Assembly (NCBI GenBank): GCA_944385625.1
Contig: CALWXZ010000001.1
Span: 28,130 to 92,129, forward strand
Origin: an uncultured Flavonifractor sp.
GTDB taxonomy: Bacteria > Bacillota > Clostridia > Oscillospirales > Oscillospiraceae
Reading direction: 5' to 3'
Length of the DNA stretch: 64,000 nucleotides
The notes under the pieces are model-generated. The model searched no databases and had not been told where the DNA came from. It was given only the letters and a program-made list of their open reading frames with translations. Position 1 is the first letter of the stretch, and each line of letters starts with the position of its first letter. The position numbers were made by a program, and so were the translations under genes. This document shows, piece by piece, positions 25,346 through 35,539 of the stretch.

Positions 25346-27469
25346 TTATTCCAGCAGATGAGCCACTTTTTGATAGGCTTCACTCTGCTTCAGGGCGGCT
25401 ACCGCCGGGTCATCCGGAGCATATTGGTCCAAAATGGCCCGCACCTTGGCTGCCAGCTCCCGCAACTGGGGATCAACGGGACGGGCGGGGGGATTTTTTT
25501 GGAGGAACTCCACCATTTTCTTCATAGCCGGGGCCGCTTTCAGCGCCTTGCGCAGCGCCCGCACCCAGCCCAACTCGTCACCATTCTCCCAAGCGCTCCT
25601 CCCCTTCAGCAGCAGCAGGGCAAACTGGTGCATACCAGGCAGAGCATTCCAGTCCTCCTCACTTTCCAAGAGGGCAGAGTTGTAATAGTTGGGCATATAG
25701 TCCGCCGCCAAGCTGAGGAACAGCGCGCACAGCCGCCGGGCACGCTGGTCATCCTTCCAATCCTCCGCCCGCAGGGCCGCCATGGTCAGCTCAAACTGGA
25801 ACTGGAACCGGGACATGGAAGCGGTAAAGTCGCAGCAGCCCATCCAGTCCAGCAGGGTGTCAATGAACTCCGGTTTCTTGGCGTCCACCAGACCAGCCGC
25901 AGTATCCCGGTTGTCCTGGGCGCTGCGCCGGAAGAAGGAGTCGGGCAGGGGAAGCCCCAGCTCCACGGCGTGCTGGATGGCAAGGAGGGGCACCTGCGTC
26001 CAGTCCTTGATCCGCTCCAATAGGACCCGGCCCTCCTCTGCATCGGCGTCCATAAGCCGGGCGGCCCAGCCCAGCTCACAGGGGACCTCCCGGAAGAGAC
26101 GCCAGCGGCCCTCCAGCCATCTCCGCTCTTCATCCTCATCCTCTGGCTTTTCCCGGAATCGGTCGTTCAGCATCAGCAGCCAGTTGTTCCTCTTCTCCCG
26201 GCGGCGCTTTTCCGCCTTGTCGTCCTCTTCTTCCTCCGACAGAGTAAGAATAGGAGGCAGCACCTGCCCCATACGCTCTTGGGCCTGGGGATTGTCCCGC
26301 AGGCAGTCCATAGCCTGGAAGTAGGAGTACGAAGCCGCCAGCTCCAGTTTTGCAGCATCCAGAGGCAGAAGCATCTCCAGTGCCTCGTCCTCCCTGCCTT
26401 GCCGTGCCAAGCACTCAGCCTTGACGCACAGCATCCGCTGCCGGTCCTCTTCCGCCAGGAAGTGGAGACCAGAAGCCCTGCTCTCCCGCAGCATGGCAAT
26501 CCGCTGCCTGCTCCAGGTCTCCTGACCCTTGAAGTAGCGCTCCGCCCAGGACAGGGCAGTGTCATACTCCTGTTTCTTCTGGAAGTACAGTGCGGCGCTA
26601 AAGGTCACATCCACCTGGAAAAAAATGCTCCGGACCATGTGCTCCTCTCCCCAGGCCAGCCAGGTTCTGGCCTGGGGCAGGTCACCCAGCAGAGCCTTTT
26701 GCAAAGCGGCCCGGTATAGGGGCTGACCGTAATGAGACATGGCCAGCTCTGGCTGGGCCATAAAACCGTCCATAGCCCGCTGGAGGTAGCTCATGTGCTC
26801 CTGGGGAAATGCACCTGAGGACTCCACACACTGGTTGAGCCGCCGCAGGTCTCCGGGGTTCTTCTCCAACTCCGCCCGGAGGAGCTTCATATTCCGTTCT
26901 GCCTTCTTTTTGGACTGCTCCGGCGTTTGGAATGCATAGCCGTCGTGGTCGAAGATGGTCTTGCCCAAGATTTTTGTGTCCGCATCAGCGGGCAGCACCC
27001 AGCTCTCATGGATACTGCCCTGATAGCGCAGGCCGCTGTCCATACGCAGCATACGGGGGGCAGGAAAATCCATGTAGCGCCCATCCATTTCCCGGGTGGT
27101 GTAACTTCGCTGGATGACAAAGGCCAGCAGCAGGTTCTTGGGGTGCTTGGCCCACAGGAACTCCCGCAGCTCCCGCAGGTTGGGCACCAGGTACTCGTCG
27201 GCGTCCACCGTCAGGTACCACTTGCCGGAGCACCGGTCCATCACCGCGTTGCGGGCCTCGGAAAAGTCTCCTGTCCACGGAAAGTCAAAGAGAATATCCG
27301 CATACCGCTCCGCCACCTCCCGGGTACCGTCGGTGGAGCCGGTGTCTGCGATGACCAGCTCACAGGGCACCGCCTCCCGCAGAGGCTGAAGGGCCTGAAG
27401 GCATTTTTCAATGCAGCGAATCTCGTCTTTTACAATCATGCCAATGGAAAGAAGCGGTTTTTCCATGAT
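25346..27469 (-). CDS. GT2 glycosyltransferase with TPR-like helical extension, probable flagellin glycosyltransferase
   Basis: LSIGMIVKDE, ADTGSTDGT, DFSEARN, VDADE (DxD), IHE, HDGY; directly downstream of flagellin; start at MEKPLL is approximate. Confidence 0.8.
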   Translation of the reverse strand: MMEKPLLSIGMIVKDEIRCIEKCLQALQPLREAVPCELVIADTGSTDGTREVAERYADILFDFPWTGDFSEARNAVMDRCSGKWYLTVDADEYLVPNLRELREFLWAKHPKNLLLAFVIQRSYTTREMDGRYMDFPAPRMLRMDSGLRYQGSIHESWVLPADADTKILGKTIFDHDGYAFQTPEQSKKKAERNMKLLRAELEKNPGDLRRLNQCVESSGAFPQEHMSYLQRAMDGFMAQPELAMSHYGQPLYRAALQKALLGDLPQARTWLAWGEEHMVRSIFFQVDVTFSAALYFQKKQEYDTALSWAERYFKGQETWSRQRIAMLRESRASGLHFLAEEDRQRMLCVKAECLARQGREDEALEMLLPLDAAKLELAASYSYFQAMDCLRDNPQAQERMGQVLPPILTLSEEEEDDKAEKRRREKRNNWLLMLNDRFREKPEDEDEERRWLEGRWRLFREVPCELGWAARLMDADAEEGRVLLERIKDWTQVPLLAIQHAVELGLPLPDSFFRRSAQDNRDTAAGLVDAKKPEFIDTLLDWMGCCDFTASMSRFQFQFELTMAALRAEDWKDDQRARRLCALFLSLAADYMPNYYNSALLESEEDWNALPGMHQFALLLLKGRSAWENGDELGWVRALRKALKAAPAMKKMVEFLQKNPPARPVDPQLRELAAKVRAILDQYAPDDPAVAALKQSEAYQKVAHLLE

Positions 27470-27568
27470 AAAACACACCTTTTGTTTAATTTGGACAACT
27501 GACATATATCCCGGTCCCTCCCGGAGGCGGGGCTGGGATATACAGCGGCTGTCGCGCTTGCCGCCTTA

Positions 27569-27690: not shown

Positions 27691-28806
27691 TTACTGGAGC
27701 AGCTGCAGCACACCCTGGGGCACCTGATTGGCCTGGGCCAGCATGGCCTGGGCGGACTGCACCAGGATGTTGTTCTTGGTGTAGGCCATCATCTCGTCGG
27801 CCACATCGGTGTCGCGGATGGTGGACTCGGCGTCCTGGATGTTCTCCTGCATCACGGACAGGTTGTTGATGGTGTGGTCCAGACGGTTCTGGGTGGCGCC
27901 CAGAGTACCACGGACGGAGGACACATCATTGATGGCCTTCTTGATGGTATTGACAGCATCCTGAGCGCTCTTCTGGTCGCTGATATTGATGCCAGTCAGG
28001 CCCAGCTTGTCAGCGTGCATATCCTTGATGTTGACATCAAGCTGATTGTACTTGTCGCTGGTGTCGCCAATCTGCAGGGTCAGATCGGAGCCCTTCTTGG
28101 TAGCGCTCTGCAGTGTATTGGTATTTGTAAAGGTAGCAGTGTAACCAGCATCGCTGAGAGCAGCCTGCAGGTCAGAGAAGTTGCTGAAGGTGCCGTCGTC
28201 AGTAACATTGGCGCCCGAGGACACATATGTGTAAGTCTTGCCGCCGATGGTCAGGCTATCACCAGTCGCATAAGTAGCGCTCAGATTGAAGCTACCATCG
28301 GAGGCGGCGACAAGGTCACTGCCGCCCAGCTTGCCGCTGATCTCCTTGGCCAGGTTGACCTTGACGGCGGTGTTGGTGCTGTCCATGGAGCCGTCCAGCA
28401 GGTTGATGCCGTTGAAGTTGGAGGAGTCGGCGATACGGTCGATTTCCTTCGTCAGCTCATCGAACTCCTTCTGCAGGTTGGCGCGGTCGGTCTGGTCGTC
28501 GTAGGTGCCGTTGGCGGACTGGTCGGCCAGCTCCACCATACGGTTGAGCATATCGTGGACCTCGGTCAGGGCGCCCTCAGCGGTCTGCACCAGAGAGATG
28601 CCGTCCTTGGCGTTCTTCTGAGCCACGTCCAGGCCGGTGATCTGGGCGCGCATCTTCTCGGAAATGGCCAGGCCGGCGGCGTCGTCGCCGGCGCGGTTGA
28701 TCTTATAGCCGGAAGACAGCTTCTCCAGGTTCTTGCTCAGAGCGCTGGTGTTGGTGGAGTAGTTGCGGTAGGCGTTCATCGCCATAATGTTGTGCTGAAT
28801 ACGCAT
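27691..28806 (-). CDS. fliC: Flagellin (371 aa)
   Basis: MRIQHN...LSSGYKINRAGDDAAGLAISEKMR; C-terminal LGATQNRL...IRDTDVA...QANQVPQGVLQLLQ; ATG at 28806 with RBS AAGGAGG. Confidence 0.98.
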   Translation of the reverse strand: MRIQHNIMAMNAYRNYSTNTSALSKNLEKLSSGYKINRAGDDAAGLAISEKMRAQITGLDVAQKNAKDGISLVQTAEGALTEVHDMLNRMVELADQSANGTYDDQTDRANLQKEFDELTKEIDRIADSSNFNGINLLDGSMDSTNTAVKVNLAKEISGKLGGSDLVAASDGSFNLSATYATGDSLTIGGKTYTYVSSGANVTDDGTFSNFSDLQAALSDAGYTATFTNTNTLQSATKKGSDLTLQIGDTSDKYNQLDVNIKDMHADKLGLTGINISDQKSAQDAVNTIKKAINDVSSVRGTLGATQNRLDHTINNLSVMQENIQDAESTIRDTDVADEMMAYTKNNILVQSAQAMLAQANQVPQGVLQLLQ

Positions 28807-28834
28807 GGAAAATTCCTCCTTGAAAAATTGGGTG

Positions 28835-28975: not shown

Positions 28976-29003
28976 GCCCCCCTCCAAATTTTTTCAAAAA
29001 AAT

Positions 29004-29036
29004 TTCCCCCGCCCGCCAAAACGGCGGGTGGGGGAA
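29004..29036 (-). terminator. Terminator of the parA-comFB operon
   Basis: TTCCCCCACCCGCC/GGCGGGCGGGGGAA stem then ATTTTTTT on the minus strand. Confidence 0.75.
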
Positions 29037-29041
29037 GGGGT

Positions 29042-30022
29042 CTATTGGGATACGGTGTGCCGGGGGGACTCCATCACCGCCTTGCAGGCCTGGATGACCT
29101 GGGCGATGACCTGAGACTCAAACTTGGCCCGGTACAGACTGAGCATGGGGGTGGCGGCCATCTCGGCCAGCACCACATACTTGGGGGGCAGCTTGGTGAG
29201 CGCCAGGGCCCGGGCGTCGGCCAGACACCGGGGGCAGCTGCACAGCCCGAACATTTTGACATACCGCTCCAGCCGCTCGTCCACCAAAATCTCCATCACA
29301 TTCATGCACACGGAGCCGTCCGGCAGGCGGGTCTGTCGGGGGGCGAAGGGCACCTCCGGCTCCGGCTTGGATTCTGGCTCCGGTTCCGGCTCGGGTTCGG
29401 GCTCCAGTTCTGGTTCCGGTTCCGGCTCGGGTTCGGGCTCCGCCTTGGGGGCCGCCATGCTCCGCAGCAGCTGCTCGATCTCCTCCTGGCTCATCTTCCC
29501 GCCTCCGGAGGCCGGGGCAGGCTCCGATTCCGGTTTGGGGTCCGGTTCAGGCTCCGGCTGGGGTTCCGCCTTCTCCTGCTCCTCCGAAAAAGGGTCCAGG
29601 ATGACCTCCGGCTGGGGCTCCGGCTCCGGGTCCGGCTGAGGCTGGGCCAGCTCCTCCTCCAGCGCCTGGGACAGGGCGTCCCGAATGGTCTCGGACAGGG
29701 CCTCATTGTTGGTGCGGGCCACCTGGAGAATGGGGGCGGCCAGCCGCTCCCCCTCCCGCCGGGCGGGCGGCGGCGCAATGACGGTCTCCTCCGCTTCCGG
29801 CTCCGCCTGGGCGGCTTTTTTCCGGGTGCGCCGCTTTTTCGGTTGGGCCCCCTCCTGGCTTTGGGCCTGCTCAGCCGGGGCAGGCTCCCCGGCCTGCACG
29901 TTCTCCGGCTCCGGCGTCTCCAGCTCCGCGGTGGGGGCGGGCGTCTCCGGCTGGCCGCCCCCGGAGAGCAGGCTGAGCACATGGTCCGTTTTACTGGTGC
30001 GGCTGTTTTTTCTGGATGCCAT
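29042..30022 (-). CDS. Protein with basic N-terminal peptide, Pro/Glu-rich linker and C-terminal ComFB-family domain
   Basis: NVMEILV...[24 protein letters not shown]...VMESPRH matches the ComFB pattern; ATG overlaps the parA stop (TGATG). Confidence 0.8.
29340..29650 (-). repeat. Low-complexity (Pro-Glu)n coding repeats
   Basis: Translated [26 protein letters not shown] and similar runs. Confidence 0.8.
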
Positions 30023-30813
30023 CAGGCCCCTCCCCCTCTCTCAGCCCGTGGGAAACGGGAACCGGCCACCTGGTCGCACAGCTGCTCAAAGTCCCGGGCG
30101 GGCTTGGAGGCGGGGGCGTAGTCCACCACGCTCAGGCCGTGGGCCGGCGCCTCCGCCACCGAAACGCTGCCCCGGATCTTGGCCTCGAACACCACCGTGT
30201 CCAGCTGTTGGGCGATCTGGGAGGCCAGCTCCAGCACCTCCCGGTTCAGGTTGAAGCGGCCGTTATAGCGGTTGAGCAGGATGCCCAGCACCTGCAGGCG
30301 GGAGTTGTAGTACTCCCGCACGCTCTGGATGGTCTCCTTGATCTGGGAGACCCCCAGAAGGCTAAGTACCTCGGGCGCCATGGGGATGATGAGCTTGTCC
30401 ACCGCCACATAGGCGTTGACGGTAAGCAGGTTCAGGGCAGGGGGCGTATCCACAATGATAAAGTCGTAGTTCTCCTCCACCTTGGACAGGGCGGTTTTCA
30501 GCATAAACTCCCGGCCGGGACGGTTGAACTCCAGTTCCGCCCCCGCCAGCAGAATGTTGGCGGGCAGCAGGTCGCAGGTCTCGGTATGGGAAATGGCGGC
30601 CTGCGGCTCCAGCTCTCCCCGGAACACGTCGTAGATGGTGGCGCAGCGCTCAATGTCCAGCCCCAGGCTGAACCCCAGACTGCCCTGGGGGTCCAGATCC
30701 ACTCCCAGCACCCGGGCTCCCCGGTTGTGCAGGCTGGCCAAGAGGGCCGCCGACGTGGTGGTTTTGCCCACGCCGCCCTTCTGATTGGTGACGGCGATCA
30801 TAAACGCGGACAT
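30022..30813 (-). CDS. Orphan ParA/Soj-family ATPase
   Basis: Deviant Walker [32 protein letters not shown]; ATG at 30813 with RBS GGAGG; no parB adjacent. Confidence 0.92.
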
Positions 30814-30958: not shown

Positions 30959-30987
30959 ATTGTACTCAAAAGATTTTTTCTTGTCAA
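30959..30987 (-). promoter_or_regulatory. SigmaA promoter of parA-comFB
   Basis: TTGACA-N17-TACAAT on the minus strand. Confidence 0.8.
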
Positions 30988-31064: not shown

Positions 31065-33695
31065 ATGGCATCCATCAGCAGTCTGTCCAGTTCCAGTTCC
31101 TCATCCAGCGTCTACGGAAACCGCACCTATAACATCGTATCCGGTCTGGCCAGCGGTATGGACACCGAAGAGATGATCTCCGGCCTGGTGCAGAGCTATC
31201 AGCAGAAGATCCAATCCCTTCAGAATAAAAACACCAAGCTTCAATGGCAGCAGGAAGCCTTCCAAGGCATCTCCGACAAATTGGTGGAGTTTGACCGGAA
31301 TTACTCCTCCTATGTCTATTCCGATACCAACCTGGCCAGTTCCAGCTTCTTCAATAACGCGGTGAAAACCACCACCAACGGCACCTACGCTAACCTGGTC
31401 ACCGCCTCGGGCAAAACCAGCAGCACGGTGGTGGTGAACGCGGTGCGCCAGTTGGCCACCGCCGCCCGGTACAGCGTCTCCGCCGACGATCTTAACGGCA
31501 ACGTATCCACCGTGAATGGGCAAACAACCATTACCGGCGGCGCTTTGAAGGTCAACAGCGATGACACTGTGACCGTGAGCAATCTGGCCGGTTCCATGAC
31601 CTTCTCCTACGGCGGCAAGACGGTCTCCATCGATCTGGGCCAGCGGGAGCTTTTTACCGACGAAAACGGCACGTTCAGCGCCGATGCTCTTCAAAAAGCC
31701 ATTACGGAAAAGCTCAGCGAGCAGCAGATTTCCACCAGCGGCGGCTCCGGCACTGCTGACCAGTACATCGGCGTGAGCGTCAAGGACGATGGCAATGGCA
31801 ATCTCTCCATCTCTGTCTCCGACAAGAAGAACGCGGGCAACACAGTGAGCATCAGCGGCGCCACCGGCGACCTGGGCAAGCTGGTTGGCGATCTGGGCGA
31901 TGGAAAAAGCGAAGTTTCCCTGGGTGCTTCCAAGGATCTGACCAGCAATATCTCTCTGGGCGACTTTGTCTCCGGTCAGACGCTTACCGTCACCATGGAC
32001 GGCAAGAGCAAGACCATCAGCCTGGACAAGTTCAAGGACATCTCCAAGGTATCCGATTTTGAGGCCACCCTCAATGAGGAGCTGAAGAATGCCTTTGGCA
32101 CTGTGACCGGCACCAGCACCCAGAAGGTCACCGCCACTTTCGGCAAAAACGGTATTTCCTTTGTTATGGATCCGTCCGTAGAAAATTCCACCTTCTCGGT
32201 AACCGCCTCTACCTCCGATATAGGGGATGTGCTGGGTATCGGCTCCGGCTTGACCAATTACCTGGACACCAACAAAACACTGGGAGAACTGAATCTGGGT
32301 ACTGGCTTTAGCTGGGACAACGGCGCCATTGTAATGGGCAGCGGTGATAAGGCCATCGAGCAGAAAAACGACGCTGGGGAAGTCATCGGCTATGTGGATG
32401 CCGACGGCAACTCTGTCAATGCAAACAACGAACGCCTTGGCAAGGACGGCCAGGTCCTGCGCAGCTACGACCTGATTATCAATGATGTGAAGATCGGCTC
32501 CTACACCCGGGACACCGAGATGAACACCATCATCAACGCCATCAACACCAACACCGAGGCCGGCGTAAACGTCAGCTACTCCAAGACCTCCGGTCAGTTT
32601 GTCTTTACCGCCAAGGATACCGGCTCGGCCGGCCGGGTGGAGATCAAAACCGGCGGCCTGGGGGCTGTTCTCTTCGGCGCCACCGTGCAGGAGGCAGAAG
32701 ATCCCTCCAACACAAAGCCTGCCACCACCACCAAGAGCGGCTCTTACGAGGCTGGTACAGACGCACTCCTCAACGTCACCATCAACGGCCAGAACATGGA
32801 GTTGGTACGCTCCTCCAACACGGTAGACCTGGACGGTATGTCCGTCACCGTCAGCGGCACCTTTAATGAGAAGGCCACCCTGAGTCAGGACGGAAAGACT
32901 ATGGTGAACAAGGAACAGGGGGCCGATGGCACGGAGAAAGAAGTTGCGGTTGACGCTGTTTCCTTCACCAGCAAGACCGACGCGGATACCATTGTGGACG
33001 CGGTGAAGAAGATGGTGGACGACTTCAACGCGCTTATCAAAGAGGTCAAGAGCGCTTATTCCGATATGCCGCTGGAGAAGAGCGACGGCTCCCGGTATGA
33101 GCCTCTCTCCGACGAGGACATGGAGGATATGAGCGAGTCGGCCATTGAAAACTATGAGGAGAAGGCCAAGACCGGCATTCTCTTCATGGACAGCGACCTG
33201 TCCTCTCTGTATAACGACCTGCGCAGCGCCATCTCCGTCAGCGGATCGGACGGCGCTACTCTGCGTTCGATCGGTATCAGCACCTCCTACTCCGACGGCC
33301 TGACCACCCTCACCTTTGATGAGAAAGCCTTCCGGGAGGCCCTGGAAAGCGACCCGGACAAGGTGCAGGAGGCCTTCACCAAGTCCAAGGAGAACGGCGC
33401 CGCCACCGACGGCCTGATGGCCACCCTCAAGTCCATCACCGACCGCTACGCCTCCACCACCGGCGATACCAAGGGTATTCTCATCGAGAAGGCGGGCTCC
33501 AAATACTCCCCCACCGCCGCGCTGGATAACACCATCCTCAACCAGATGAACGATGTGGAGGAGGAGATCTCCAAGTGGCAGGACAAGATGTCCGATCAGG
33601 TGGACTACTACACCAACAAATTCACTCAGCTGGAAATGCTGATTAACCAGATGAACTCCCAGAGTTCGGCGCTGTCCGGCCTTCTGGGCGGCTAA
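31065..33695 (+). CDS. fliD: Flagellar cap protein FliD (876 aa)
   Basis: N-terminal SGLASGMDT...LQWQQEA, SSNTVDLDGMS, FVDDFN-like MVDDFNALI, C-terminal YYTNKFTQLEMLINQMNSQ. Confidence 0.93.
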   Translation: MASISSLSSSSSSSSVYGNRTYNIVSGLASGMDTEEMISGLVQSYQQKIQSLQNKNTKLQWQQEAFQGISDKLVEFDRNYSSYVYSDTNLASSSFFNNAVKTTTNGTYANLVTASGKTSSTVVVNAVRQLATAARYSVSADDLNGNVSTVNGQTTITGGALKVNSDDTVTVSNLAGSMTFSYGGKTVSIDLGQRELFTDENGTFSADALQKAITEKLSEQQISTSGGSGTADQYIGVSVKDDGNGNLSISVSDKKNAGNTVSISGATGDLGKLVGDLGDGKSEVSLGASKDLTSNISLGDFVSGQTLTVTMDGKSKTISLDKFKDISKVSDFEATLNEELKNAFGTVTGTSTQKVTATFGKNGISFVMDPSVENSTFSVTASTSDIGDVLGIGSGLTNYLDTNKTLGELNLGTGFSWDNGAIVMGSGDKAIEQKNDAGEVIGYVDADGNSVNANNERLGKDGQVLRSYDLIINDVKIGSYTRDTEMNTIINAINTNTEAGVNVSYSKTSGQFVFTAKDTGSAGRVEIKTGGLGAVLFGATVQEAEDPSNTKPATTTKSGSYEAGTDALLNVTINGQNMELVRSSNTVDLDGMSVTVSGTFNEKATLSQDGKTMVNKEQGADGTEKEVAVDAVSFTSKTDADTIVDAVKKMVDDFNALIKEVKSAYSDMPLEKSDGSRYEPLSDEDMEDMSESAIENYEEKAKTGILFMDSDLSSLYNDLRSAISVSGSDGATLRSIGISTSYSDGLTTLTFDEKAFREALESDPDKVQEAFTKSKENGAATDGLMATLKSITDRYASTTGDTKGILIEKAGSKYSPTAALDNTILNQMNDVEEEISKWQDKMSDQVDYYTNKFTQLEMLINQMNSQSSALSGLLGG

Positions 33696-34108: not shown

Positions 34109-34519
34109 ATGTTAAGCGATCAGGACTTTACCTGCGCCATTGCGATTCAGCGCAAGATGTACACATCCCTCAATGAGGTGGCTGATCTGACGGACGAGCT
34201 GTCTCAGGCTGTGAGCCGGCAAGATCAGGTCTCGGTACGGATGTTTCTCTCCATGCGTCAGGAGGAAATTCAACGTCTTACCAGCTACCAGGCCATGCTG
34301 CACCGGCAGTGCAGACAGCTTCTTCCAGAGGACGCCAGGCTGCTTACCCAGCTCAACTCCGGCCGCTTTCAGGGAACCGCTCCCTCCCCCAGCGCCCAGG
34401 CTCTGCTCCAGCAGGCCCAGCGCAACCGCTCCCTGCTGGAGCGCGTGCGCCGGGCGGATGAGGCCGTCAGCAGCCGCCTTGGCGGTCCAAACTCCTTTTA
34501 CAACAAGAAGAGGAAATAG
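34109..34519 (+). CDS. Helical FliT/FlgN-like chaperone (putative)
   Basis: Small all-helical protein in the fliD-fliS-fliT position; no diagnostic motif. Confidence 0.45.
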   Translation: MLSDQDFTCAIAIQRKMYTSLNEVADLTDELSQAVSRQDQVSVRMFLSMRQEEIQRLTSYQAMLHRQCRQLLPEDARLLTQLNSGRFQGTAPSPSAQALLQQAQRNRSLLERVRRADEAVSSRLGGPNSFYNKKRK

Positions 34520-34575: not shown

Positions 34576-35469
34576 TCATCCTCCGCCCAGGGCGGTAAAG
34601 CACCAAAGAGGCGCGCCGTCCGTACGGCTGGCGGACAGTTCATCCAAAATGAGCTGCGGGTCCCAGAGCGCCAGGCTGCGCGCCCGGCTGTTGGAGTCGG
34701 CCACCAGCACTTGTCCGGTGAGGGTGGCGCCCCGGAGCACGATAAAATGCCCGCCGGTGGTAAAGTGTCCCGGCCCCATCAGGGCCACCATCAGCTGGCC
34801 CGAGGCCAGGCGCTGACACAGCTCTCCTTCGGAGATTTCCCCGCAGGACTGGGCGGTCAGGCCGAAGTAGCGGGCCATCCCCTCCACCAGAGACAGGTAG
34901 GAGCCGCTGCCGGCGGCACAGTACCCCTGTTGGGCGGCAAGCCGGGCCATTTCGGCCGGGTCCACCACCTGGCCGCTCAGGGTGGAGACCACCATGGACA
35001 TGGCGGTGGGGCCGCAGCCAAAACCCTTGATGAGATCGGACCCGAAGGCCGCGCTGGCCCAGGGCTCCTCGCTCTGGTTAAAGTAGACCAGCTCCACCAC
35101 CCCCCCGGTGAGTACCTCCTGCCCCTGGCGGGAGGCAAACTGAGTGATCTCCGGGTCCTGGATCAGGGACTCCGGGTCTTGCTCCGGCTCCTGGATCTCC
35201 TGGCTGACAGGGGGGGCGTCTCCCTGTTGCTGTTGGTCCTGCTGGTAGGCCGCTACGGCGCCTTGCAGCTTTTGAAGCAGCGCCTGCCCCTGCCCCCACA
35301 CTCCGTGGGCCATCTGGACCACCGGCTGGGTAATGCGCTGGAACAGGGCGGGCTCCATGACCCGGCACACCGCCAGCTCCACGCCCGCCACACACACCAG
35401 GGCCAGCAGGATGATCCCCAGGACGCGCGCATATTTCTTTGGCTTTTTTCCCCCACTCAATCTTCTCAT
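34576..35469 (-). CDS. Membrane-anchored C39-like cysteine peptidase
   Basis: N-terminal TM helix; GCGPTAMSMV (Cys), GGHFIVL (His), ADSNS (Asp). Confidence 0.8.
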   Translation of the reverse strand: MRRLSGGKKPKKYARVLGIILLALVCVAGVELAVCRVMEPALFQRITQPVVQMAHGVWGQGQALLQKLQGAVAAYQQDQQQQGDAPPVSQEIQEPEQDPESLIQDPEITQFASRQGQEVLTGGVVELVYFNQSEEPWASAAFGSDLIKGFGCGPTAMSMVVSTLSGQVVDPAEMARLAAQQGYCAAGSGSYLSLVEGMARYFGLTAQSCGEISEGELCQRLASGQLMVALMGPGHFTTGGHFIVLRGATLTGQVLVADSNSRARSLALWDPQLILDELSASRTDGAPLWCFTALGGG

Positions 35470-35514
35470 GCCACCTTTTGTGTTGTGAATCTGATTATAG
35501 CAAATTTTTTTATG

Positions 35515-35526
35515 CTTGTATACAAG
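35515..35526. promoter_or_regulatory. Perfect palindrome CTTGTATACAAG, possible repressor operator
   Basis: 12-bp palindrome between divergent genes, overlapping the ftsE-like RBS and the -35 region of the C39 gene promoter (TG-C-TATAAT at 35494-35502, minus strand). Confidence 0.45.
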
Positions 35527-35539
35527 GAGCAATCGACCT

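Follow-up and report, generated by a model that had tools for sequence, protein, structure and literature searches.

A ParA-type ATPase and a ComFB-domain partner co-inherited in flagellar and chemotaxis clusters of gut Oscillospirales

The DNA analysed here (the window, a stretch of 64,000 nucleotides of contig CALWXZ010000001.1) comes from an uncultured Flavonifractor sp., a gut member of the Oscillospiraceae, and carries on its minus strand a two-gene unit, parA-comFB, between the genes for flagellin and for the flagellar cap (fliD). The first gene encodes a ParA/Soj-type ATPase (P0001) and the second a partner protein with a ComFB domain (P0002). The two genes are strictly co-inherited beside fliD-fliS or che genes, and the pair is almost exclusive to flagellated genomes, being a fixed part of flagellar/chemotaxis clusters in Oscillospirales. 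In our preferred reading, in which we have slightly more confidence than doubt, parA-comFB is a dedicated ParA/MinD-type ATPase/partner module that serves as a lineage-specific flagellar/chemotaxis component in Oscillospirales without FlhF and FlhG. We regard a functional tie between the module and motility as very likely. The specific mechanism proposed below, namely a peptide-stimulated ATPase cycle, gating by a cyclic dinucleotide and control over the number or placement of flagella or over motor behaviour, is put forward more tentatively, with belief and doubt at best in balance. In bacteria that have neither FlhF nor FlhG, the unit probably couples flagellar control to a second messenger.

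How flagellar number and placement are chosen in peritrichous or FlhF/FlhG-less Firmicutes is poorly understood. The module gives a ComFB protein a concrete conserved partner, the ParA ATPase, and offers two further short motifs, one of which is of the type of peptide that binds phosphorylated CheY (CheY~P) or FlhG. Full-text searches of the literature on ComFB together with ParA and flagella did not find the pairing described, and the ParA-ComFB module is apparently undescribed. Compared with an earlier note on this DNA, which was made from the sequence alone and had already singled out the pair, the EIDAL-type peptide, the second conserved tether helix and the absence of FlhF/FlhG are new.

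Co-inheritance with flagellar genes

Within the genus, the partner gene is found in 7 of 23 congeners, each time with a parA gene (75-90% identical) directly upstream. FliD is encoded within about 3 kb of the pair in six of these seven genomes, the seventh being 75% complete, and in none of the 16 congeners that have no pair. For the order, 251 genomes were sampled and a ParA threshold of E<=1e-55 was applied. Nineteen other genomes gave a strong ParA match, 17 of them with a P0002-like gene, or one bearing the N-terminal peptide described below, directly downstream; of the remaining two, one has a chromosomal Soj with its ParB (L047) and the other a ParA whose small partner is unrelated (L046). 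FliM is present in 16 of the 17 pair-bearing genomes versus 51 of 250 overall. A sample of 399 genomes of the class added only two pair-bearing genomes outside the order, one with the pair at fliD (L072) and one with the pair between cheC-cheD and cheW (L073). At another locus (L063) the pair is followed by cheA, and che genes adjoin it in several lineages.

Scanning a species-level genome collection with the genus-level partner alignment gave 59 named loci, all with Oscillospirales-type names (among them Flavonifractor, Lawsonibacter, Intestinimonas, Oscillibacter, Dysosmobacter, Neglectibacter, Evtepia and Acutalibacter). ParA is encoded directly upstream of the partner in 55 of the 59, the other four being cut by contig ends, while fliD is divergent in 51 of them and the block C39-orf136-fliS-fliD<>parA-comFB is seen in most. 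Divergent pairs, with a ParA of 36-47% identity, exist in further flagellated genomes (L044, L045, L073, L136 and L137), so that our thresholds undercount the family. From the recurrence of the same pair and order in the seven congeners, the 17 other genomes of the order sample and the 55 named loci, it is clear that the arrangement is not due to chance. The outcome that the earlier note had held against its own proposal, a pair equally common in non-flagellated relatives, was not seen, as the FliD and FliM counts above indicate.

Absence of FlhF and FlhG

Neither flhF nor flhG follows flhA in this genome, and no FlhF above the NCBIfam cut-off is found in it; its only two SRP54-type GTPases are presumably Ffh and FtsY. 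Seventeen flagellated genomes of the order sample do have an FlhF above this cut-off, and the pair is present in none of them (0/17); no P-value is given for this exclusion, since related genomes are not independent. Both states, FlhF and the pair, occur in families f7 and f18, in different genera. The flhA gene itself lies in a region upstream of the window (G000:C1:8428-16232), in which the gene for a fliA-like sigma factor comes immediately after it, and then two rod genes, cheC, cheD, cheV and a gene for an EAL-like/HDOD-like protein.

P0001 is a ParA paralogue without ParB

P0001 matches the Pfam families AAA_31 (E 8e-50) and CbiA (3e-26). No NCBIfam model reaches its cut-off for P0001 or P0002, the best partial match of P0001 being ParA_partition, far below the cut-off. 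The sequence contains the deviant Walker A motif (xKGGxGK[ST], residues 10-19) with its signature Lys, a motif 2 of the DxD type (VDLDPQG, 38-44) and a Walker B motif (FIIVDTPP, 118-125). The nearest solved structures are those of mycobacterial orphan ParA-like proteins (4PFS/5IHP, 2.5e-47), Myxococcus xanthus ParA (8RAY) and Thermus thermophilus Soj.

No parB gene and no gene for a ribbon-helix-helix (RHH) or helix-turn-helix (HTH) partner adjoins the gene for P0001. The only ParB_N genes of the genome are on contig C47, beside the Soj of a canonical noc-soj-spo0J locus, and this Soj is 37% identical to P0001. Because the genome has this standard locus elsewhere, P0001 is an extra ParA paralogue without ParB, and the orphan status that had been assigned to it from the window alone is borne out. 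Two further ParA-like genes (RKGGVGKT), nearly identical to each other and, at 31% identity, unrelated to the flagellar ParA, were found on short contigs (G000:C94:580-1323 and C128:4871-5614); these probably lie on repeated mobile elements.

The pocket that receives the ParB peptide in M. xanthus ParA has been defined experimentally at the dimer interface (PMC12462528). When the pocket residues are mapped onto P0001 by the alignment with 8RAY, eight out of ten are kept or conservatively replaced, with Y81, E82, V116, E117, L150, L152, L155 and L192 corresponding to Y61, D62, L93, E94, L127, L129, V132 and Y169, respectively. In the f9 clade, and only there, the ParAs (L038/G109, L040/G147) end in basic AT-hook-like tails (KKRGRGRPRKHP and KKLGRGRPRKNP, e.g. 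KKRGRGRPRK), and those of G210/G163 have Lys/Arg-rich C-terminal tails. Such basic tails may compensate for the absence of the canonical DNA-binding Arg, to which we return below.

P0002 combines a conserved N-terminal peptide, an acidic tether and a ComFB domain

The partner was studied in an alignment of 25 orthologues, drawn from 409 matches (Flavonifractor, Pseudoflavonifractor and similar names), on which the AlphaFold2 prediction of P0002 was also based. In P0002, highly conserved parts alternate with highly variable ones, the segments between the conserved parts being Pro/Glu-rich, variable in length and unalignable. The tether (residues 22-232) is Pro/Glu-rich, acidic and mostly predicted to be disordered (predicted local distance difference test score, pLDDT, <50), and is broken by two helices. 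Helices are predicted at residues 11-19 (pLDDT about 70), 97-126 (about 90) and 179-189 (about 79). The longest of these lies in a second conserved segment, in which P97, I98, L99, V101, A108, L109, I113, R114, A116, L117 and L121 are invariant among the 25 orthologues and which is still recognisable in partners of other families.

The N-terminal peptide is the most conserved part of this otherwise fast-evolving protein. Its consensus among the 25 orthologues is M-A-G-[RK]-K-x-x-R-[ST]-S-K-T-D-H-V-L-x-L-L-x-G-G, with R8, S10, K11, T12, D13, H14, V15, L16, L18, L19 and G21 invariant; the earlier description of P0002 as a basic N-terminal peptide on a roughly 200-residue acidic Pro/Glu tether agrees with both the alignment and the predicted disorder. 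Across families the consensus becomes [SN]-K-T-x-x-V-[LM]-x-L-[LIV], and the more divergent pairs carry a second type (type II), ..L-x-K-[ED]-L-M-[FY]-K-K-I-[LM]-P. The two types co-vary with the ParA subclades, and this co-variation is the best in-silico support for a putative direct contact between P0001 and P0002.

Partners of ParA/MinD ATPases generally use a short charged N-terminus followed by disorder (PMC10241942). In M. xanthus ParB the motif residues are L11, R13, L15, L18 and I19 (PMC12462528), and the genome's own Spo0J starts with MALERGLGRGLGALLGD. With K11, V15/L16, L18 and L19, P0002 shares the hydrophobic register of the ParB motif. Its assignment as a true ParB motif was nevertheless rejected, as K11 stands two positions earlier than R13 of ParB; we call the peptide ParB-like, but not a member. 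Resemblance to the ParB motif without identity would fit a need to keep the module from cross-talk with Soj-Spo0J.

The ComFB-linked ParAs all fall into one clade of a maximum-likelihood tree, far from chromosomal Soj. The clade has three subclades that match the partner type: the main one with type I partners, the f9 one with short partners of type I, and the one with type II partners. The sisters of the type II subclade are two ParAs with small non-ComFB partners (L046, L048). These closest non-ComFB ParAs are followed by proteins of 114-116 residues (L048:2264-2614 and L046:2259-2603), in which Pfam detects no RHH, ParG or other domain; one of the two starts with LDTDSMFKSLIS, resembling the type II N-terminal peptide of the ComFB partners. 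The tree and this likeness, the only two sources of the idea, hint that the module may have arisen from a plasmid-type pair of a ParA and a small adaptor.

An EIDAL-type peptide of the switch proteins in the tether

The tether of P0002 carries a core of the LSQxEIDxLL type (residues 177-186) at the last of the predicted helices. The genome's FliM starts with MAEVLSQSQIDALL (core LSQSQIDALL), and its FliY carries GGGAVMSQEEIERLL (core MSQEEIERLL), which is preceded by GGG, as in P0002. When the six-frame translation of the whole genome (5.07 million residues) was searched with a permissive regular expression, exactly three proteins matched, P0002, FliY and FliM, versus 0.013 matches expected from composition. 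The FliY peptide is encoded upstream of the window (G000:C1:20399-20467, L050/L051) and sits in a Pro/Gln-rich linker between the CheC-like and SpoA parts of this 431-residue protein, unlike the N-terminal site in Bacillus subtilis. A recent DNA copy of the FliY motif was considered and set aside: 28 of 30 nucleotides are identical (MSQEEIE-x-LL), but this is weak given the strong codon bias at a G+C content of ~60%.

The motif occurs in 34 of 115 close homologues (1-3 copies) and in 5 of 52 species-level partners (1-4 copies), and among distant lineages there are six copies in L037 and five degenerate ones in L032. The EIDAL peptide of FliM binds CheY~P (PMC6946799), and FliM/FliY bind FlhG through the EIDAL motif, which was described as 'necessary and sufficient' (10.1101/2022.04.21.489128; PMC12826062). 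That a peptide of the switch proteins was gained and multiplied on the tether more than once is an argument that the partner may act near CheY~P, the C-ring or an FlhG-like ATPase, and the ATPase in question could be the co-encoded ParA.

The ComFB domain and cyclic dinucleotides

The only Pfam domain in P0002, which by Pfam has no CheW-like domain, is ComFB (PF10719, residues 241-320, E 1.5e-16, 60.7 bits versus a cut-off of 25). The domain is predicted with pLDDT >90, and Foldseek relates it only to B. subtilis ComFB (4WAI; target template-modelling (TM) score 0.72, root-mean-square deviation 2.4 Å; sequence match E 1.6e-5) and to Synechocystis CdgR/Slr1970 with cyclic di-GMP (c-di-GMP; 8HJA). 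Its conserved features are C261-x-C263-x-x-C266, C313 and the invariant P320-R-H322. The domain is thus a genuine ComFB fold with the CxCxxC site that had been proposed for it. The B. subtilis ComFB domain is dimeric and zinc-bound.

ComFB-family proteins act as receptors of c-di-GMP and cyclic di-AMP (c-di-AMP) (PMC12448109), and comFB genes are found near flagellar genes in several bacteria (PMC12448109; 10.1101/2025.07.11.664319). In B. subtilis, ComFB (BsComFB) with c-di-GMP inhibits flagellar function, its target being stated as unknown (10.1101/2025.07.11.664319). The BsComFB residues D33, A36, L37, K/R41 and V47, which contact c-di-GMP, correspond to D269, A272, L273, K277 and V283 of P0002; the equivalent of Y46 is also conserved, and position 41 is usually K or N in the main clade. 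In the genome itself there are about nine matches to GGDEF, several of which lie on the contig that carries the flagellar genes, and one to DAC.

In a complete genome (G210, L062:7386-11751), the genes for a PilZ protein and for a diguanylate cyclase of dCache-HAMP-PAS-GGDEF architecture directly precede the pair on the same strand; the partner is short there (182 residues) and too divergent for the Pfam ComFB model. Pfam likewise does not recognise the partners of the f9 clade as ComFB, and these are linked to P0002 by phmmer (E about 4e-7), by position and by a CxCxxC...P-x-H pattern. Since the fold matches, most ligand residues are kept, GGDEF and DAC genes are present and the G210 pair has a PilZ/GGDEF neighbourhood, binding of a cyclic dinucleotide by the ComFB domain of P0002 is plausible.

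Proposed mechanism and points against it

In the mechanism we propose, the ComFB domain would be the cargo or sensor end of the partner, binding c-di-GMP or c-di-AMP and/or a motility target, and the ATP cycle of ParA would decide whether the partner is available, or where. The EIDAL-type peptide of this lineage would plausibly engage CheY~P or an ATPase of the ParA/FlhG type (perhaps the module's own ParA), competing with the C-ring. The most likely output would be flagellar number, placement or assembly, or motor behaviour, responding to the cyclic dinucleotide in a manner analogous to FlhG/FleN. If true, this would add a new class of cargo or adaptor to the ParA/MinD family and would connect c-di-GMP directly with the flagellar apparatus of the abundant gut Oscillospiraceae.

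A bolder version, which we consider unlikely, would see in the pair a functional replacement of FlhF/FlhG in many gut Clostridia, i.e. a c-di-GMP-gated ParA machine for flagellar number or placement, or for C-ring assembly. Its partner would have evolved from a plasmid-type ParB-like adaptor by exchange of a DNA-binding domain for ComFB, and in some lineages would mimic the EIDAL peptide of FliM/FliY, competing for CheY~P or for the ATPase.

Several observations weigh against a dedicated flagellar module of this kind, or against parts of its mechanism. The docking, the stimulation of the ATPase, the binding of a ligand and localisation of any kind are inferences. Some flagellated families have neither FlhF nor the pair, and in one of them, f10, both of the two genomes checked have neither FlhF nor any ComFB; the module is therefore not a universal substitute for FlhF/FlhG. 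Of 52 species-level partners, 47 have no EIDAL-type peptide, and it is likewise missing in 81 of 115 close homologues; since most partners lack it, it cannot belong to the core mechanism. In the ComFB domain, N40 of BsComFB is replaced by T276 (Thr or Ser in the main clade), Y55 has no aligned aromatic residue, with an invariant Y297 nearby, and the f9-clade partners have no equivalents of D33, A36 and L37.

The ATPase deviates as well. The motif-2 Asn (N64 in M. xanthus) is Ser45 in P0001, and two residues of the ParB-peptide pocket are changed, D110 to L87 and L187 to S164. In M. xanthus ParA, the change R238E, at the second Arg of PRNVR, abolishes non-specific DNA binding. P0001 has Ser218 at this position, each of the 22 aligned members of the clade has S, A, L, V or I there, and no MinD-type C-terminal amphipathic or membrane-targeting helix is evident in P0001. 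With the DNA-binding Arg absent and no membrane helix evident, the matrix on which positioning would take place lacks a candidate. The flagellar link and the partner architecture of the earlier interpretation proved solid; a simple model of a nucleoid-riding ParA has against it that the DNA-binding Arg is Ser218 here and never Arg in the clade.

Alternative explanations

The missing DNA-binding Arg and the lack of an evident membrane-targeting helix would be well accommodated by a regulatory switch, an alternative that we take seriously without thinking it likely. Here a soluble complex of ParA and its partner would tune flagellar gene expression or assembly according to ATP and nucleotide state, with no surface gradient, and would resemble FleN(FlhG)-FleQ of Pseudomonas, for example by holding a transcription factor, a C-ring component or an export component. 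The absence of FlhF and the sigmaA-type promoter-like site that precedes the pair and faces the fliD region are in line with such a switch, as are the cyanobacterial ComFB/CdgR proteins, which are reported to act by binding transcription factors. However, P0002 has no DNA-binding or activator domain and no transcription factor candidate is co-inherited in the conserved block, while a long flexible tether with an N-terminal 'luggage-tag' peptide is the hallmark of a cargo adaptor (PMC10241942).

The EIDAL-type peptide invites yet another explanation, in which the partner, in the lineages that bear the motif, would modulate the chemotaxis signal by binding CheY~P, as a decoy or scaffold whose tether bears 1-6 docking peptides. 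Control of its availability by ParA and the ComFB domain would then change the switching frequency, paralleling the reported effect of B. subtilis ComFB on the motor. The peptide is the CheY~P site of FliM, is common only to P0002, FliM and FliY in this genome and has been multiplied independently in the distant lineages L037 and L032 (close relatives have 1-4 copies), and che genes are adjacent in several lineages. On the other hand, most family members do without the peptide, so that this could at best be an added function, and EIDAL also binds FlhG-type ATPases, so CheY~P is not the sole candidate ligand; altogether we find this explanation decidedly improbable. Least credible of all, to the point that we hardly reckon with it, is a DNA-partition system, whether a relic or active (plasmid type Ib or second chromosomal), that lies by chance in the flagellar region, with the ComFB gene an unrelated neighbour. 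The small proteins after the nearest non-ComFB ParAs (L046, L048) do have the size of plasmid partners, one with a type II-like N-terminal peptide, and ParA_partition is the best, if partial, NCBIfam match. Yet the locus has no ParB, RHH or HTH partner, the DNA-binding Arg is lost, the synteny with fliD-fliS is rigidly kept on the chromosomal contigs of dozens of genera, and the pair occurs with flagella, its partner gene always being a ComFB gene. The distribution of the pair already contradicts a partition system.

Operon anatomy and neighbouring genes

The stop codon of parA (TGA, 30024-30022) shares a base with the start codon of the partner gene (ATG, 30022-30020), and the translationally coupled pair (TGATG) between flagellin and fliD, as the earlier note had it, is confirmed on the minus strand at the coordinates of Table 1. 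In the terminator-like hairpin behind the partner gene (z = -2.5), a G+C-rich stem of 13 bp precedes AAAUUUUUUU. With the TGATG overlap, a promoter-like site of its own and this hairpin, parA-comFB looks like a self-contained bicistronic operon. The sigma-28-type pattern TAAA-N13-16-GCCGATA has 0 matches within the window, and we claim no sigma-28 control.

Table 1. Features of the parA-comFB locus (positions in the window)
Feature	Position	Strand	Remarks
parA (P0001)	30813-30022	-	263 residues; ParA/Soj-type deviant Walker A ATPase
ComFB-domain partner gene (P0002)	30022-29042	-	326 residues
N-terminal basic/amphipathic peptide	29960..30022	-	residues 1-21; putative ParA-docking/activating motif
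Second conserved tether helix	29645..29749	-	residues 92-126; pLDDT about 90
EIDAL-type peptide	29456..29506	-	residues 173-189; FliM N-terminus/FliY linker type
ComFB domain	29057..29326	-	residues 233-322; PF10719, Foldseek
SigmaA-type promoter-like site	30959..30987	-	TTGACA-17-TACAAT, 11/12, consensus match only; upstream of parA, facing the fliD side
Intrinsic terminator-like hairpin and U-run	28994..29036	-	directly 3' of the partner stop codon
Flagellin gene	27691-28809	-	flank of the pair
fliD	31065-33695	+	flank of the pair, divergent from parA

The gene order around the pair is cheA, cheR, cheB, a gene for a GT2 protein, flagellin, the pair, fliD, fliS, an open reading frame (ORF) of 136 codons (orf136) and a gene for a C39-like peptidase. 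The orf136 product (34109-34519, plus strand) belongs to no Pfam family and may be a FliT/FlgN-like chaperone; the ORF has the same place after fliS in 44 of 59 related loci. The membrane-anchored Peptidase_C39_2-like protein (34576-35532, minus strand) is encoded beside fliS/orf136 in 40 of the 59. Between cheB and flagellin, the 719-residue GT2 glycosyltransferase with a long helical C-terminal part (25346-27505, minus strand) is a candidate flagellin glycosyltransferase, and its gene recurs next to flagellin in several related loci.

Comparison with known systems

In the known positioning systems of the ParA/MinD type (ParA-ParB, MinD-MinE, McdA-McdB, ParC-ParP and PpfA-TlpT), as at the present locus, a deviant Walker A ATPase is encoded beside its partner, and the partner likewise consists of a short charged conserved N-terminal peptide, a disordered part and a cargo-side domain (PMC10241942). 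By sequence alignment, most residues of the ParB-peptide pocket of ParA (PMC12462528) have the same or a similar counterpart in P0001. A ComFB cargo-side domain, present here, is not known from any described system of this group. The pair further differs from ParABS in having neither ParB nor parS, from Soj-type nucleoid-riding ParA in the loss of the canonical DNA-binding Arg, and from ParC/ParP in that P0002 has no CheW-like domain for array integration of the kind found in ParP.

The ComFB domain shares with ComFB/CdgR (4WAI, 8HJA) the PF10719 fold, the CxCxxC zinc site and most of the dimer and ligand residues, N40 and Y55 of BsComFB not being among them. The described members are mostly stand-alone domains, whereas P0002 adds the N-terminal peptide and the acidic tether; the ComFB papers (PMC12448109; 10.1101/2025.07.11.664319) say nothing of a neighbouring ParA, of a docking peptide at the N-terminus or of an acidic tether. 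Similarly, the P0002 peptide fits the EIDAL motif of FliM/FliY (LSQxEIDxLL), but is placed in the middle of the tether of a non-switch protein, in 0-6 copies, and is absent in most relatives.

With FlhF/FlhG (FleN), the module has in common a ParA/MinD-type ATPase encoded in a flagellar cluster. FlhG is MinD-like, has a C-terminal membrane-targeting helix and is encoded after flhA together with FlhF, whereas P0001 is Soj-like, helix-less and encoded beside fliD, in a genome without FlhF. FlhG works through the EIDAL peptide of FliM/FliY, and a peptide of this type is carried by P0002. In the FleN-FleQ system, FleQ is a c-di-GMP receptor, and the logic of joining an ATPase to such a receptor is the same, with an AAA+ enhancer-binding protein as the receptor there and a ComFB protein here.

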